Source: Escherichia coli
GTDB lineage: Bacteria > Pseudomonadota > Gammaproteobacteria > Enterobacterales > Enterobacteriaceae
Reading direction: 5' to 3' (one strand)
Assembly (NCBI RefSeq): GCF_003018235.1
Contig: NZ_CP027437.1
Length of the DNA stretch: 64,000 nucleotides
A program made the position numbers and the translations under genes. Shown here in pieces: positions 2,318 to 33,505 of this stretch; positions within the stretch are counted from its first letter, which is position 1, and every line of letters begins with the position of its first letter. A model generated the notes under the pieces. It ran no database searches and was not told the origin of the DNA. It was given only the letters and a program-made list of their open reading frames with translations.

Positions 2318-2518
2318 TTAATTTGATTTATTTGCATCCATTAGCGCTTTTAACTGCTCCGGCGTAAACGGTGGTTTGCGTCGGTGCAACATCGCATGGC
2401 AATTAGGGCACACAGGAAGCAAATCATTAACTGGATCCAGCTGGTAATCCTCTTTAATGGCTGAAAGCGGCACCAGGTGATGCACATTAAGCAATTTCAG
2501 AACCGCATGCTCATACAT
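2318..2518 (-). pseudogene. Short HNH-endonuclease-like ORF (66 aa), probably a truncated remnant
   Basis: Translation carries HH..P....N....CPNCH..H spacing typical of HNH nuclease cores but is far shorter than standalone HNH enzymes. Confidence 0.35.
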
Positions 2519-2577
2519 ATTTCCCCCTAAGTTTGCTCACTGCCTTTAATTTATGTCACAGGCAATGTAATTCACCT

Positions 2578-2649
2578 GAAGCTCATCTTGAATCTGTCCT
2601 TCTACTTAGTCATTACCCTACTGGCACAACCGACCTCAAGATGAGCTTC
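2578..2649. repeat. 14-bp perfect inverted repeat (gaagctcatcttga / tcaagatgagcttc) with 44-bp spacer
   Basis: Read directly from sequence, arms at 2578-2591 and 2636-2649; lies just 3-prime of the minus-strand gene ending at 2656. Confidence 0.6.
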
Positions 2650-2655
2650 TTACTT

Positions 2656-3264
2656 TTAACGATGTATCAGAACAATCTTGCGCCGGGAGAATAGCGTTTC
2701 CGCAGACAGCTGGAATTTATATTCCGCGGCCTTCAGCTTTCGCGATTTAAGCATTTTCATCGTGATACCCCTTATTTTCCCTGACTCAACCTGTCTCTTG
2801 ATTTCGCCGGTGCTCAGCATGAGCTGCTTTTGCAAAATCGACAGCAGGCTGACCTGAAACGAACGGGAAATCCTGACGCTAACCTTGACCCATTTGCCGG
2901 GAGAAAGGCTGGCTAACCACTGCTCCTGAATGCGAAAATCAGGCCGACCCGATAGCTCTGCGTTGTTCCGCTTCAGCATCGCGATATCACAGGAAAAATG
3001 TTGAACCGTGGCTGCATCGTTGCTCATCAGCCGGTTATGAAGTTCGCGGTCAATTTTGCTGACGTGCAGGCGCGAAAATAGGGAGATATTCCAGGTGTAA
3101 TCACAGTGTGTGCATTTATAGATACTCCACACGTCCAGCACCTTCTTTTGCGAATTAATCCGAAATGCACCTGATGGCGTGAAGTCCCGTTTAATGTTGC
3201 ATGAAGGGCATCGCTTCGCAATGCGCTGATACCCCACGGGCGTGACGGTCCATGTAACTTTCAT
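2656..3264 (-). CDS. Hypothetical protein with N-terminal CxxC...CxxC zinc ribbon and basic C-terminal region (202 aa)
   Basis: Long ORF with two CxxC pairs (CPSC, CTHC) and a K/R-rich C-terminus; no confident family assignment. Confidence 0.5.
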   Translation of the reverse strand: MKVTWTVTPVGYQRIAKRCPSCNIKRDFTPSGAFRINSQKKVLDVWSIYKCTHCDYTWNISLFSRLHVSKIDRELHNRLMSNDAATVQHFSCDIAMLKRNNAELSGRPDFRIQEQWLASLSPGKWVKVSVRISRSFQVSLLSILQKQLMLSTGEIKRQVESGKIRGITMKMLKSRKLKAAEYKFQLSAETLFSRRKIVLIHR

Positions 3265-3559
3265 AACCTACCTTTTTTAACCCATACAAAACCGGATCCG
3301 TACTGAACGGACCATGGATGTTTATGTATGAAAAATATTTAAGAGATATTTTTCAGAGGGTTAAAAAAAGATTTCCAACTATGCAATCCTGTCGGTGAGC
3401 AAAGAGATATAGCGAGACTATCAAAACGGCAATTATTGGGTATATGAGTTCAATCAATATTCATGATGGTTATGGCTTGTTCTATTGATCTGACACATTA
3501 AACACGGCGCATTAATTTTGTATGTTTTATGAACAACCCAACAACAAAAGGAGCGCGAT

Positions 3560-3811
3560 ATGACACAGCACGAACGGTTTTGTCAGGCCTGCGGAATGCC
3601 GATGTCCGCACCTGATGCGCAGGGGAGTAGCGATAAATACTGTGCATACTGCAGCGATAGCAACGGCAATCTTAAACCCTGGGAAGAGGCGGTATCAGGC
3701 TTGGCCAGCTTCCTTGATTCCTGGCAAAAAGTCGGTCCAGAAGAAGCACAGAAGCGTGCAAAACGTTATCTGACGGCAATGCCTGCCTGGGCTCATAAAG
3801 CGGACGAGTGA
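3560..3811 (+). CDS. Small zinc-ribbon domain protein (83 aa)
   Basis: CQAC...CAYC motif; strong SD aaaggag 8 nt upstream of ATG. Confidence 0.5.
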   Translation: MTQHERFCQACGMPMSAPDAQGSSDKYCAYCSDSNGNLKPWEEAVSGLASFLDSWQKVGPEEAQKRAKRYLTAMPAWAHKADE

Positions 3812-3875
3812 ATAACAAAGTCAGGGTGATTTAGGCAGTCTATCTTCACTCCGCTGATTCCATTAAGGAGAGCCG

Positions 3876-4268
3876 ATGTTTTCTCACATTATGCTTGGAA
3901 CCAACAACCTGCCACGCGCCATTGCATTCTACGATCCGTTGATGGATATGCTGGGGTATCCCCGCGGCGGCAGGAAGAGGAGATCGCATGGTGGGGCGTT
4001 TTCAACGGTAATAACACTACGGCACTGGGTATCAGTAGGCCATTTGATAAACAGGTTGCCACGACCCGAAATGGAGTGATGGTCGCCCTGATTGCGCGTT
4101 CTGCCGAACACATCCAGCAAGTTTCATGTGCTAGCTTTAAATCACGGTGGCACTGACGAGGGAGCACCTGGCCAGCGTCCGCATTACGGCGAAGGGTTCT
4201 ACAGCGCTTACGTCAGAGACACCGATGGCAACAAGCTGGCTTACGTTTATTACACCGCACAATCCTGA
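3876..4268 (+). pseudogene. VOC/glyoxalase-family gene disrupted by frameshifts
   Basis: N-terminus MFSHIMLGTNNLPRAIAFYDPLMDMLGY in frame 1 (SD aaggaga upstream); the rest of a VOC-like protein (ALGISRPFDKQVATTRNGVMVAL... and GGTDEGAPGQRPHYGEGFYSAYVRDTDGNKLAYVYY) continues in the other two frames, implying at least two frameshifts. Confidence 0.5.
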
Positions 4269-5708: not shown

Positions 5709-8246
5709 ATGATAAATGACCATGAAGAACTAGAACTTGCTAAAGCTCAGGCAAAAGAAATATGGAAGATCCTTGATTATGTTCGAGGAGCATCACCTAT
5801 ATCTAATTATCGCTCATTAGCGTATTCAATCTTCTTCGTACGCTATCTTCAATCCAATACAGGTCAGCATTTTGAGGCAGAAAGGTTCGACTCTTTTAAT
5901 GTCATCGCCCAGTATTCCTACGATCTTGTAAACTATGCCGTTCAACTTGGATTGATTCATAGCGACGTATCTAAATTCTTAATTTATTATTTAGAAAACA
6001 CACTCCGTTCATTTGTCAATATTGATGAGTCTTTTGTTCGTTATGCAATTAGAGATGGTCTACTCAATAAAACCCCTGCAATAGCGTCGCTTTCTTTATC
6101 AGAACTGGATTTACTTTTTGCCGAGAATGAAGGTAAGTCAGGAGGTGAGTTTTATACCCCTAGAGACGTCAACTTATTGGTTAAAATATTAGGATTGAGT
6201 TATCAACCAAAGTCAATATGTGACCCATTTGCAGGTGCTGGAAACACAGCATTTCCTTTTGCCAATACTGGTATTGAAAAAGTTAGGATTGATACTCAAG
6301 AAATTAATAGAGATGCTTACTTTAAACTAGTAATAAGTAGAGTCATCAGGAAAATAGAAGGTCGAGACTATTTCGGCGATTCCCTATCACAACCATTATA
6401 TCAAGAAAATAAATATGATCTGATAGTTTCTTTCCCACCTTTTGGCATGAAAATTCCTAAAGCCACTCGAAATAATATTTACTATAAAACAAGTAATAAG
6501 TGGCTGGATATTACTGAAATCTTGCCAGAAAGTAGAAGTGATTGGTTTATAACATTATCAATGCTTCCAGCCCTTTCTGAGGGGGGTAAGATACTAGTAG
6601 GTATGTCACTTGGGGCTTTGACAAGAGCAGGCTCTGAGGCAAAGGTTCGTGAGTATTTAGTCTCTCGCGGAATTATCGAACAAGTAATTCTTTTACCTAA
6701 AAATATTTATTACTCTACGGCTATCTCAACTGTACTTCTTGTCCTCAACTCAGGAACAAGTAACATAAATAACAGAAGTATTAAATTTGTAGATGCTTCA
6801 CTGTTTTACGAGCCTGCCCGTGGTCGAAACACCCTCACAACAAAAAATATAAATGAGATCGTAGAGGCTTGTCATAAAGATGGCCGATTTAGTATTAGTT
6901 CATCTCATACCCAAATAGCAAACAGAGACTTTAATTTAGATCCGTCTCTTTATGTACGTAAAGATCTCAAAATCAGTGAGGTTTCTTTAAAAAATTTTAG
7001 AGGATACTCTGACTTTAAAGTTTCGATACATCCTTCTTTAAATGTATTGGTTGGTGAGAACGGCGTCGGGAAAACTTCGATATTAGAAGCATTAGCATGT
7101 GGCCTTGGTCCTTTCCTTACTGCTATGCCTGATGCTAAAGGAAAACTGATAAAAAAATCAGATATCCATATAAGTTCAAAAGGAATCGCAAATTATGCTC
7201 GAATATCGATTGAAACAACATCAAGTTTAAGTTGGGATCTTGTGGCAAAGGGGGTTGATGTTTCCGAGCCCCCTAAGATAGGAACATCAGCATTAACTAG
7301 CTACGCTACTCATCTTGTAGATAGTCAGTCTGAATATCCACTCATTGCTTATTATGGGACTAACCGTGCTCTTACTTCTACCAGTTCTAAAGTTGCAATA
7401 AATCCATTCGAGAAAGAAAATCGTGGGGAAGGTTATGACTTTGCTTTAGATGCTAAAGTTAACTACGGCATCTTAAAGAACTGGTTTTCAAAAATAGAGG
7501 TTGATGAGCTTCGAAAACGTGATGAACTAAAAGACCATAAATTCATTCATCCGGCTAAGAGACTTGTTTCAGAGGCTGTTTACCAGATTGTTGATCGAGC
7601 TACATGCTTGGAGTTCGACAAAAATAGTAACGATGTTATGGTTCATTGGAAAAATGAGCAGGGAGAGTGCGTAAAGCTTACATTGGAACAACTAAGTGAA
7701 GGGTATAGAAATATGGTATCCCTGACCATTGACCTAGTGAGGCGTGCTTATTTACTTAATCCTACCAAACCGAAACCGCTAACAGTTAATGGGATCGTTT
7801 TAATTGATGAAATTGAACTTCACTTGCACCCTAGATGGCAGCAAAAGATTTTAAATGATCTTACTAAGCTGTTTAAGAATATTCAGTTTATTGTCACGAC
7901 ACATAGTCCTCAAGTCTTAACAACAATCAAAGCCGATTGTATCCGTATTGTTTCCGTCAATGCTAACGAAGCAAAATTAGTGACAGGAACTACTACTTAC
8001 GGTTCTGAAAGCTCAAGAATGTTGGAAGATGTTTTAGGTGGTAACAATCGCGCCCAACATCTTGATATTGTTAAAAAACTAAACCGTTATACAGAGTTAG
8101 TAGAGGCCGACAAATGGGATACCGATGAGGCATTAGAACTCAAAAAAGAGTTATATAAATGGGGTGGTCAGACAGAAGACGAGCTTCAAAAATTAGAAAC
8201 TGATATTCGAATTCGCGAGTTCGAGCGTGGCAATGAAAAAGATTAA
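5709..8246 (+). CDS. Fusion protein: N-terminal gamma-class N6-adenine methyltransferase-like domain plus C-terminal ABC-type ATPase (Septu PtuA-like)
   Basis: MTase-like motifs in order X-I-IV: EFYTPRDV (about aa 147), DPFAGAGN (about aa 172), SFPPFG (about aa 240). ATPase motifs: Walker A GENGVGKTS (about aa 449), Walker B VLIDEIELHLHP (about aa 695), TTHSP (about aa 730). AT-rich coding sequence. Confidence 0.75.
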   Translation: MINDHEELELAKAQAKEIWKILDYVRGASPISNYRSLAYSIFFVRYLQSNTGQHFEAERFDSFNVIAQYSYDLVNYAVQLGLIHSDVSKFLIYYLENTLRSFVNIDESFVRYAIRDGLLNKTPAIASLSLSELDLLFAENEGKSGGEFYTPRDVNLLVKILGLSYQPKSICDPFAGAGNTAFPFANTGIEKVRIDTQEINRDAYFKLVISRVIRKIEGRDYFGDSLSQPLYQENKYDLIVSFPPFGMKIPKATRNNIYYKTSNKWLDITEILPESRSDWFITLSMLPALSEGGKILVGMSLGALTRAGSEAKVREYLVSRGIIEQVILLPKNIYYSTAISTVLLVLNSGTSNINNRSIKFVDASLFYEPARGRNTLTTKNINEIVEACHKDGRFSISSSHTQIANRDFNLDPSLYVRKDLKISEVSLKNFRGYSDFKVSIHPSLNVLVGENGVGKTSILEALACGLGPFLTAMPDAKGKLIKKSDIHISSKGIANYARISIETTSSLSWDLVAKGVDVSEPPKIGTSALTSYATHLVDSQSEYPLIAYYGTNRALTSTSSKVAINPFEKENRGEGYDFALDAKVNYGILKNWFSKIEVDELRKRDELKDHKFIHPAKRLVSEAVYQIVDRATCLEFDKNSNDVMVHWKNEQGECVKLTLEQLSEGYRNMVSLTIDLVRRAYLLNPTKPKPLTVNGIVLIDEIELHLHPRWQQKILNDLTKLFKNIQFIVTTHSPQVLTTIKADCIRIVSVNANEAKLVTGTTTYGSESSRMLEDVLGGNNRAQHLDIVKKLNRYTELVEADKWDTDEALELKKELYKWGGQTEDELQKLETDIRIREFERGNEKD

Positions 8247-9081: not shown

Positions 9082-10515
9082 CTACAGGGGCGATGCTAGC
9101 TCAGAGAACCAAGCGTGAACTGATCTGTAAAATGTGCTGATTGACCAAAACTCACTGCATGCAGCAACTAACAGAATGACCACTAAGAGGATCACTACAG
9201 TAGAAGTCATTCTTTCCACACGGCAGTATGATCCCATCGCATCTTTTACAGGTTGTCTAGCCAGTTCCTGATAATCCAGCTCATCCAGAAATCCGTATAA
9301 TTTAGTTCTCCAGGTGGTTCTAACTCTTTCAAGTAATGAAATTGTTTGCCTATTAATATAGACAGACATTCCATAGGAAATAACTATATAAACCGCGATA
9401 GCACAAAAAACCAAAGCGTAAATATTTTGCAAACCAACTGATTTTACTGCATCCAGACTGTAGCGAATAACCAAGACACTAATTACAAGAGCCATATCTT
9501 TCCATAAGGAAGAGGACAAATCTCGGGATTGCTGAATGATCTTTTGTGTATCTTCAGCCAGCGTTTTCCGCAAATCACCCAAGGATTTCATAGTATCTTT
9601 ACCACCAGTCCTGATATGGGCCTTATACATTAACCGTGCAGACTCCAAAGCTGATGAGAGTCGAAGCATCACTCCCTCACAAAAGTTCAGGTCTGAAGGC
9701 CACTCTCTAGCCAGCTCGCTGGACAAAAACGTATGTTTCAGCTCAGTTTCATTCCCCTCTAGAAAAATCCACTTTGCCGCTTCCTGGATAATATCAAAAG
9801 CAGGTAACGCTGCCGTCTCATCGCCGAATGCTATTTTTCTGGGAGGCTTTCCCGCAAGCCCCACCATCATTTCGTCAGCAAAAAAAAGTTCATTTGCAAA
9901 ACATTTCAGCAACTCTCGGCATCCTAGCAATTTCCATATCTTGATTGCTTCATCAGTCTTCTCACTACAAGTTTCAAGTATCCAAGGGGCAATGGCATCT
10001 GGAGGAAGAAAAGTTGTTGAATAACATTTGATGATACTTTTTGTTACTGAAGGCTTAGTGATAGCTGTTGCATCACCAGCACTCACCGGCTGTATCTCCT
10101 TCCATGGATGCACATACCAACTTATTGTCTGAAAGCCTTCAGTAATAAACAGCCCATAAATATGTTTGTACCGACAGAGTTTGCTATCTTGAAGTAAAAA
10201 AGTGCGCCATCCTTCTAAGGTAAAAAGCCTCAGTATCCCCGGAATTTCATTATAAGTGATGGTAATGTAGTGCTTCTGCCCTGGGACCCCCTCTCTCGGA
10301 TGAATAACATCTCTGCTCTCATCGATAAAAACGATCTTGAGATCTTCCGCATGTACATCCACTATTTCTCCCCATAAATCAAGGGATTCACTATCCATTG
10401 TGGCGGAAATAAAAAGCTTATGGATAGACACCTGCTGGTCCTCTGTGATCACAAGGTCAGATAAATGTCGTGAGTGGCATATAGCCTTACCGATTTTTTC
10501 CAATATCGATATCAT
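9082..10515 (-). CDS. Hypothetical protein with C-terminal transmembrane helices (477 aa)
   Basis: Long ORF; C-terminal hydrophobic segments (IYALVFCAIAVYIVISYGMSVYI and STVVILLVVILLVAACSEFWSI); 29-nt overlap with the upstream gene; no recognisable catalytic motif. Confidence 0.55.
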   Translation of the reverse strand: MISILEKIGKAICHSRHLSDLVITEDQQVSIHKLFISATMDSESLDLWGEIVDVHAEDLKIVFIDESRDVIHPREGVPGQKHYITITYNEIPGILRLFTLEGWRTFLLQDSKLCRYKHIYGLFITEGFQTISWYVHPWKEIQPVSAGDATAITKPSVTKSIIKCYSTTFLPPDAIAPWILETCSEKTDEAIKIWKLLGCRELLKCFANELFFADEMMVGLAGKPPRKIAFGDETAALPAFDIIQEAAKWIFLEGNETELKHTFLSSELAREWPSDLNFCEGVMLRLSSALESARLMYKAHIRTGGKDTMKSLGDLRKTLAEDTQKIIQQSRDLSSSLWKDMALVISVLVIRYSLDAVKSVGLQNIYALVFCAIAVYIVISYGMSVYINRQTISLLERVRTTWRTKLYGFLDELDYQELARQPVKDAMGSYCRVERMTSTVVILLVVILLVAACSEFWSISTFYRSVHAWFSELASPL

Positions 10516-13196: not shown

Positions 13197-13281
13197 TGGT
13201 GCCGAAGGCCGGACTCGAACCGGCACGTATTTCTACGGTTGATTTTGAATCAACTGCGTCTACCGATTTCGCCACTTCGGC
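13197..13281 (-). tRNA. leuX: tRNA-Leu (CAA)
   Basis: Reverse complement reads GCCGAAGTGGCGAAATCGGTAGACGCAGTTGATTCAAAATCAACCGTAGAAATACGTGCCGGTTCGAGTCCGGCCTTCGGCACCA, with cloverleaf features and a long variable arm. Confidence 0.9.
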
Positions 13282-33433: not shown

Positions 33434-33505
33434 TTGCGGTTGGTAATAAAAGTCTGGCTCCCTATAATGAGCCAGACTTTTTACCGCTGTAATAAAGGAG
33501 AAATC

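Follow-up and report, generated by a model that had tools for sequence, protein, structure and literature searches.

A conserved long-loop hairpin follows DUF1062 genes in twelve bacterial genera and may act at the 3′ end of their transcripts

Repetitive extragenic palindromic (REP) sequences and bacterial interspersed mosaic elements (BIME) form intercistronic hairpins that stabilize mRNA, as in malE-malF; they are ~35-40 nucleotides (nt) long and dispersed in hundreds of copies. The 3′ untranslated regions (3′ UTRs) of enterobacterial transcripts are also a source of small RNAs, such as CpxQ, DapZ, and SroC. Here we analyze an inverted repeat at positions 2578-2649 of a 64,000-nt stretch of Escherichia coli DNA (contig NZ_CP027437.1 of assembly GCF_003018235.1; the whole stretch is called the window below). 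At this locus, the repeat represents a conserved long-loop hairpin belonging to the neighboring gene of the DUF1062 family and not to the genomic island in which both lie. We consider, with moderate confidence and judging from sequence comparisons, that it is an RNA-level 3′-end or intercistronic hairpin of the DUF1062 transcript.

The repeat is perfect. Its two arms of 14 nt, at 2578-2591 (GAAGCTCATCTTGA) and 2636-2649 (TCAAGATGAGCTTC), are 100% complementary and enclose a spacer of 44 nt, and our repeat search of the window bears out this description, given in an earlier note on the same DNA. It is the sole perfect inverted repeat of at least 14 base pairs (bp) with a loop of at most 100 nt in the 64-kb window, while a mean of 0.02 such repeats per window is expected by chance (200 first-order Markov simulations of matching composition). 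The arm 14-mer has no further copy in the window, even with one mismatch (0 in 100 shuffles). Six of the 14 pairs are G-C. RNA structure prediction, a check proposed in the earlier note, returns the hairpin as the minimum-energy fold of both strands (z of -3.7 and -3.5), and the trimmed sense strand has a z of -5.0. Perfect inverted repeats of 13 bp are also found in the window at 10044-10145, 29551-29617, and 33448-33481, with loops of 76, 41, and 8 nt, respectively.

On the minus strand, the DUF1062 gene (3264-2656) is followed by a 6-nt spacer, the hairpin (2649-2578), a 59-nt spacer with a strong Shine-Dalgarno (SD) sequence, and an ATG at 2518. The repeat therefore lies just downstream of the 202-residue minus-strand gene, where it had been placed before, with 6 nt between stop codon and stem. 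The parts of this gene end are as follows; the form of the hairpin found in the window is referred to as type A.

2656-3264, minus strand: DUF1062 gene, 202 amino acids, which owns the hairpin (PF06353, E = 4e-40).
2650-2658, minus strand: DUF1062 stop codon (2656-2658) and 6-nt A-rich spacer, UAAAAGUAA; the A-rich lead is kept in all types.
2636-2649, minus strand: 5′ arm of the hairpin in the DUF1062 transcript, GAAGCUCAUCUUGA; almost no variation in the outer 7 bp, covariation of the inner pairs across 34 homologues.
2592-2635, minus strand: interior ("loop") of the hairpin, 44 nt, weakly structured; the sole conserved interior motif, GCCNGURKGRYA, is at ~2614-2625.
2578-2591, minus strand: 3′ arm of the hairpin, UCAAGAUGAGCUUC.
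2566-2577, minus strand: post-stem tail, AGGUGAAUUACA, without a U tract; it sets type A apart from the terminator-like types.

The hairpin follows the DUF1062 gene. We sampled DUF1062 loci without reference to the hairpin, using the protein in one genome per species, a DNA pattern of the gene end in metagenomes, and exact protein look-ups; the metagenome pattern scan was poorly specific, with ~20 real DUF1062 loci among ~120 fetched. A long-loop hairpin is present 5-8 nt past the stop codon in all sampled loci whose DUF1062 protein is at least ~66% identical to that of the window, except five (L008, L010, L011, L015, and L170; 65.8-80% identical), in which short hairpins or ordinary terminators take its place. 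The same position is occupied by ordinary short G+C hairpins in more distant DUF1062 genes. The sample contains 34 distinct hairpin sequences from 12 genera (Escherichia, Klebsiella, Enterobacter, Citrobacter, Kluyvera, Salmonella, Yersinia, Serratia, Leminorella, Lelliottia, Hafnia, and Morganella), and the Salmonella sequences cover both enterica and bongori; the hairpin thus goes with the gene across Enterobacterales, in many bacteria of the gut. In 585 kb searched with a covariance model, the whole window among them, each locus yielded exactly one copy, invariably behind DUF1062, and no copy turned up elsewhere. The downstream neighbors vary among loci and include ybaK, AlpA/YagK, LacI, AbiJ, and a Na/Ala symporter gene.

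Within Escherichia coli, BLAST finds the segment in just 2 of 5,426 complete genomes, where it lies in the same island and the hairpin is 100% identical. The earlier note had reasoned that the absence of the repeat from otherwise identical islands would indicate chance; it is present, unchanged, in both genomes that share the segment. Eleven other Escherichia coli genomes carry a DUF1062 gene that is ~85% identical at another chromosomal site, and there the BLAST similarity begins at the gene-proximal arm. In strain SE11, the hairpin is present with altered yet complementary arms, AAGCTCCCCT...AGGGGAGCTT. The search for the same palindrome elsewhere, also suggested earlier, thus gave a single copy in the window and per genome, both by BLAST (2 of 5,426 Escherichia coli genomes) and by the covariance model (585 kb). 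A dispersed repeat, such as a miniature inverted-repeat transposable element (MITE) or a REP-like element, was rejected on these grounds: there is one copy per locus by the covariance model and one place per genome by BLAST, and no duplication of the flanks is seen.

The stem is kept by paired changes. In a model-guided alignment of the 34 elements, which was fitted to the stem and whose sequences are related by descent, standard pairs occupy 91.9% of the pair cells, and changes on both sides are found at 5 of the 11 pairs (A-U/C-G, 24:8; C-G/U-A, 10:10; U-A/C-G, 12:7; and A-U to G-C in Yersinia). Covariation scores 0.192, compared with 0.115 ± 0.011 in column shuffles, none of which reaches 0.192 in 500 trials. 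When the partner is slid by 1-3 columns, pairing falls to 33-54%. An unguided MAFFT alignment agrees, including a paired deletion in type B, in which one base is lost from each arm, and all 8 types that we folded form the outer stem in their minimum-energy structure. Pairing maintained by compensatory substitutions in independently sampled homologues is the generic criterion for structured RNA, and it is what we observe here. Among the options listed in the earlier note, a structured RNA element is therefore the best fit, since in many genera it is the 3′ end of this single gene that carries the hairpin, with compensatory changes in the stem.

The whole hairpin is ~72-100 nt long. Its interior ranges from 38 to 59 nt across relatives, and the interior identity between types is 45-50%. 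It contains one motif, GCCNGURKGRYA, in which G34, G38, U39, G42, and A45 are invariant or nearly so (alignment A3). No conserved interior structure was found with RNAalifold, which was run on all types and on type B alone and gave a 3-bp hairpin or an alternative CCC/GGG pairing, neither with double-sided changes. Small open reading frames (ORFs) in the interior were rejected because the types differ in length by numbers not divisible by three and do not share start and stop positions. Between the window and SE11, the hairpin region is 59% identical, compared with 82% at fourfold-degenerate sites of the gene, a comparison blurred by the mosaic nature of the DUF1062 gene, whose 5′ half is 92-100% identical and whose 3′ half is 60-85% identical.

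The types differ in the sequence that follows the stem, and this difference is linked to the downstream gene. All 12 type A loci end in AGGUGAAU..., without a U tract, and 10 of them have a ybaK-like gene 60 nt downstream; in the window this gene is an 11-codon stub, and in the Leminorella locus (L007) none was detected. Types B, B′, and Yersinia (~18 loci) have 5-7 U in the first 10 nt after the stem (AGUUUUUCAG, UGUUUUUCAG, and UGCUUUUCAU) and no ybaK. Strains with type A include Escherichia coli PapM-32-1 and CFSAN018748 and Enterobacter sp. JUb54; strains with type B include Escherichia coli SE11 and Klebsiella pneumoniae ATCC 13883. An A-rich run that includes the stop codon precedes the stem in all types, and in type B an A-tract/stem/U-tract arrangement lies between convergent genes, DUF1062 and an alpA-like gene. 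The correlation between U tract and downstream gene is strong but incomplete, because Salmonella, Kluyvera, C. sedlakii, and Serratia have neither a U tract nor ybaK. A canonical terminator within 300 nt downstream is absent from every hairpin-bearing locus and present in three loci without the hairpin (L170, L015, and L008). No other terminator or promoter was found in the convergent intergenic region of SE11 or in the spacer between DUF1062 and ybaK of Escherichia coli PapM-32-1, and the latter likewise showed no promoter-like site. The homology between types A and B ends at the 3′ foot of the stem, while type A and Salmonella have ~25 nt in common past the foot.

These observations suggest the following model. 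The inverted repeat would most likely be the DNA counterpart of a stem-loop in RNA, located at the 3′ end of the DUF1062 transcript, encoded on the minus strand and present here in its type A version. In types B, B′, and Yersinia, the hairpin probably serves as an intrinsic terminator with an unusually large interior, apparently a bidirectional one. In type A, it would most likely be a read-through intercistronic or 3′-end structure that pauses or partly stops RNA polymerase and may shield the DUF1062 message from 3′-to-5′ decay. In the window, the hairpin would effectively be just a 3′-end structure of DUF1062, because the ybaK-like gene has been destroyed. The plus-strand stem is followed by UUACUUUUAA, and the plus-strand hairpin could stop read-through from nanS as an accident of this arrangement.

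Several points weigh against this model. The alignment from which covariation was counted had been fitted to the stem, as described above, and shares the effects of common descent. Single uncompensated mismatches occur in several type A relatives (L005, L117/L133, L128, and L042); the constraint on the stem is real over long times but not absolute, because these mismatches are found in close relatives. The base of the stem is just moderately G+C-rich, the interior of 38-59 nt is far beyond the loop of 3-8 nt typical of an intrinsic terminator, and the tail in the window, with 3 U in 10 nt, is not a U tract. Counts of wobble pairs, which would indicate the strand of action, give 14 G·U and 14 A·C cells, 8 of the latter being alignment artefacts. 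What the comparisons show is the presence of the hairpin, its conservation, its linkage to the gene, the covariation of its stem, and the association of the tail type with the downstream gene; action as RNA, the role in termination or stabilization, and the strand of action are inferred from them.

The surroundings of the hairpin show where the island ends. Two plus-strand genes, nanM (51-1265) and nanS (1303-2310), are found at the start of the window, and ARAGORN locates the tRNA-Leu(CAA) gene leuX at 13197-13281; therefore, the repeat is located in the variable leuX-nanS island of Escherichia coli. ARAGORN finds leuX alone in the window, and a tRNA-like element was rejected as an explanation of the repeat. 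Two features lie between the hairpin and nanS.

2485-2577, minus strand: intercistronic region and stub of a ybaK/EbsC-like tRNA-editing gene; SD GGGGG at 2523-2527, ATG at 2518-2516, 11 codons left, cut at 2485-2487.
2318-2487, minus strand: 3′ fragment of the nanS-adjacent HNH endonuclease gene (pseudogene), fused in frame to the ybaK stub.

In Escherichia coli PapM-32-1, the same ATG starts a complete 175-residue tRNA-editing gene of the ybaK/EbsC type (3510-4037 of locus L002; PF04073, E = 1.5e-27). In the window, its first 11 codons are joined in frame to the C-terminal fragment of the HNH endonuclease in a chimeric 66-residue ORF (2318-2518, minus strand). The switch occurs at 2485-2487, 91 bp to the left of the repeat, where both sequences have CAT in common (GCxCAT microhomology). 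On the nanS side, the island DNA truly ends at this microhomology junction, a deletion junction inside the ybaK-like gene. The HNH endonuclease gene next to nanS is present in about half of the Escherichia coli genomes searched (2,819 of 5,426). The earlier placement of the repeat near the island boundary holds only loosely, as the repeat is close by and the actual junction is 91 bp off. The suggestion that the repeat is a remnant of a recombination site at the boundary did not survive: the junction is a CAT microhomology 91 bp away, and the hairpin is single-copy and moves with DUF1062 into unrelated contexts. A remnant of an island attachment site (attL/attR at leuX) was also rejected, since the junction is elsewhere and the arm has no second copy in the window, including at leuX. 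The repeat carries no signal of mobility or boundary and is unsuitable for delimiting the leuX island.

Between the hairpin and the start of the ybaK-like gene there is a second small hairpin (2533-2562, minus strand; UUGCCU...AGGCAG with a 14-nt loop), which is kept in all type A loci. A related sequence follows the long-loop hairpin in Salmonella loci without ybaK. Further into the island, an 845-residue ORF (5709-8246) is annotated as an N-6 DNA methylase in the near-identical record of CFSAN018748 and is followed by a gene annotated as "retron system putative HNH endonuclease"; the region 5709-8246 and downstream may be a defence locus.

The same transcription unit includes a separate, highly conserved structured element.

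3265-3379, minus strand: structured 5′ leader of DUF1062; P1, 3370-3357 with 3284-3271, covers the SD; P2, 3355-3329; P3, 3313-3295, followed by a U tract.

Around the DUF1062 start codon, from about -110 to +130, loci that have otherwise diverged are still 90-100% identical. The stretch of 115 nt before the ATG (3265-3379) is one in which loci are near-identical even at 53% protein identity, and it is far better conserved than the protein. RNAalifold predicts a three-way junction from an unguided alignment of 37 distinct sequences. P1 is a stem of 14 bp (UUUUUUUAACCC with GGGUUAAAAAAGG) that covers the Shine-Dalgarno GG, P2 is a 10-bp A/U hairpin, and P3 is a 6-7-bp hairpin followed by GGUUUUGUA. 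Pairs are formed in 98.5% of the cells, 4-5 pairs show changes on both sides, and many G·U changes are tolerated on the sense strand only; the leader sequence of the window itself folds into the same structure. The leader is seen only before DUF1062 or its stub truncated by an insertion sequence (IS), in Escherichia coli, plasmids, and phage-collection records. About 30 Klebsiella plasmids of IncFIB type carry it, and in the Klebsiella pneumoniae plasmid pKpN01-SIL (2501-2650 of locus L172), the leader is followed by ~8 DUF1062 codons, with IS5075 nearby.

No Rfam family was found for the leader beyond a chance-level resemblance to STnc50 (RF02059), a weak match at 3282-3368 on the minus strand (17.9 bits, with a gathering score of 55) that shares the blocks CAUACAUAAA and GUUUUGUAU. 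This match is probably due to chance, although STnc50 could be a distant relative of the leader. The predicted fold looks like that of an SD-sequestering regulatory leader, such as a thermosensor, a ligand sensor or riboswitch, or an attenuator, and makes the leader a candidate for a new cis-regulatory RNA, which is probably of greater interest than the 3′ hairpin of the locus. The first ~130 coding nt of DUF1062 (3135-3264) are also 90-100% identical between loci whose 3′ halves are 60-85% identical, which points to either mosaic recombination within the gene or a nucleotide-level constraint reaching from the leader into the ORF.

With the leader in the same mRNA, the hairpin could instead be a dedicated regulatory RNA, in which the stem presents GCCNGURKGRYA to a partner (a protein, possibly DUF1062 or the ybaK-like protein) or which yields a 3′-UTR-derived small RNA. 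We regard this as possible but unlikely. The element is strictly gene-specific, keeps one interior motif, and is conserved in the sequence of its outer 7 bp and not in their pairing alone, and the highly conserved, structured leader speaks for RNA-level control of this message. Nevertheless, the interior structure differs between types without support from covariation, and interior identity between types is no better than that of neighboring third-codon positions. DUF1062 has no RNA-binding domain recognizable by Pfam or a fold search, and no significant complementarity is found between the 5′ and 3′ elements. A more specific proposal, that the 3′ hairpin is a regulatory module acting with the SD-sequestering leader in tight post-transcriptional control of DUF1062 and the ybaK-like gene, is equally tentative. 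Fold-back pairing of the leader with the 3′ hairpin, as in hok, was rejected since the RNAduplex energies are no better than those of shuffles.

The hairpin could also lack a function of its own. A functionless relic would be an old terminator hairpin that has been inherited, with its arms re-matched at times by template switching in quasi-palindromes and not by selection. Tolerance of several recent single mismatches fits this explanation, as do divergence faster than that of fourfold-degenerate sites of the gene (59% versus 82% in the blurred comparison of the window with SE11) and, in the window, the missing U tract and the dead downstream gene. We nevertheless find a relic improbable: across 12 genera, all 34 distinct sequences retain the stem although their interiors are close to random, both paired deletions and a change from A-U to C-G without a wobble intermediate are observed, and the presence of the U tract tracks the absence of a downstream gene, implying selection on function. 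Still less probable, in our view, is a site that acts as DNA, whether a palindrome bound by a recombinase or regulator or the remains of an attachment or recombination site at the border of a mobile module. The outer arms GAAGCTC/GAGCTTC are conserved in sequence, the wobble counts favor neither strand, and types A and B are homologous only as far as the 3′ foot of the stem, beyond which the neighbors differ. The foot is not a universal breakpoint, however, because type A and Salmonella remain similar for ~25 nt past it. The island junction lies 91 bp away and is simply a join at microhomology, each genome has a single copy without a second one at the other island end and without direct repeats, the feet have no attC core sites (RYYYAAC/GTTRRRY), and the fixed position relative to the stop codon is not needed for a DNA site.

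A hairpin at the 3′ end of the DUF1062 transcript is thus the explanation we prefer, and the element appears to be an undescribed, yet functionally ordinary-looking gene-end hairpin. The known enterobacterial RNA structures would gain a 3′ hairpin that is gene-specific, covaries, and has an unusually large interior. The family offers a natural experiment, with the same stem carrying a U tract if nothing follows and lacking it if a cistron follows, and could reveal how a terminator turns into a read-through or intercistronic structure. Together, the 3′ hairpin and the conserved 5′ leader would mark DUF1062, which has no known function or fold neighbor, as a gene under elaborate RNA-level control.

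Among described systems, integron attC sites share with the hairpin an imperfect or perfect inverted repeat of 57-141 bp right after a promoterless ORF. They differ in that the DUF1062 hairpin is single-copy and has neither R″/R′ cores nor the extrahelical-base pattern, and the ORF lists and annotations that we examined show no cassette array. An attC site was rejected based on the feet, ...CGTTAAAAGTAA|GAAGC and GCTTC|AGGTGAAT, where GTTRRRY is absent from the 3′ foot on either strand. The a1/a2 repeats of retron msr-msd are likewise inverted repeats around a structured non-coding stretch, and the island has a gene annotated as a retron-system HNH endonuclease; this gene, however, is ~6 kb off, and no reverse transcriptase adjoins the hairpin. 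A retron repeat was rejected because the hairpin travels with DUF1062 in genomes that have no such genes in the flanks (2.5-4 kb per side).

In its workings, the element comes closest to an intrinsic terminator or to an intercistronic stabilizing hairpin. Like REP and BIME hairpins, the type A element is a stable stem between co-directional cistrons, which could shield the message upstream of it from 3′ exonucleases and determine the ratio of the two products; unlike them, it is single-copy, gene-specific, and longer. Like the precursors of 3′-UTR-derived small RNAs, it is a conserved structured segment at an mRNA 3′ end, and type B ends in a stem with a U tail. A comparison with Rfam 15 gave no match to the hairpin, either in the window (E ≤ 10) or in six related loci (E ≤ 1). 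Compared with intrinsic terminators, the interior is large (38-59 nt versus ~3-8 nt), the stem base is not G+C-rich, and the copy in the window has no U tract and is followed by another cistron; a terminator consensus scan does not call it. The remark in the earlier note that the loop, at 44 nt, is too long for a typical terminator is correct, yet the sister variants with a U tract look like terminators. The likeness lies in the position of the stem-loop right after the stop codon (6 nt in the window and 5-8 nt in homologues) and in the type B, B′, and Yersinia variants, which have an A-rich lead and a U-rich run and are the sole terminator-like structure between convergent genes.
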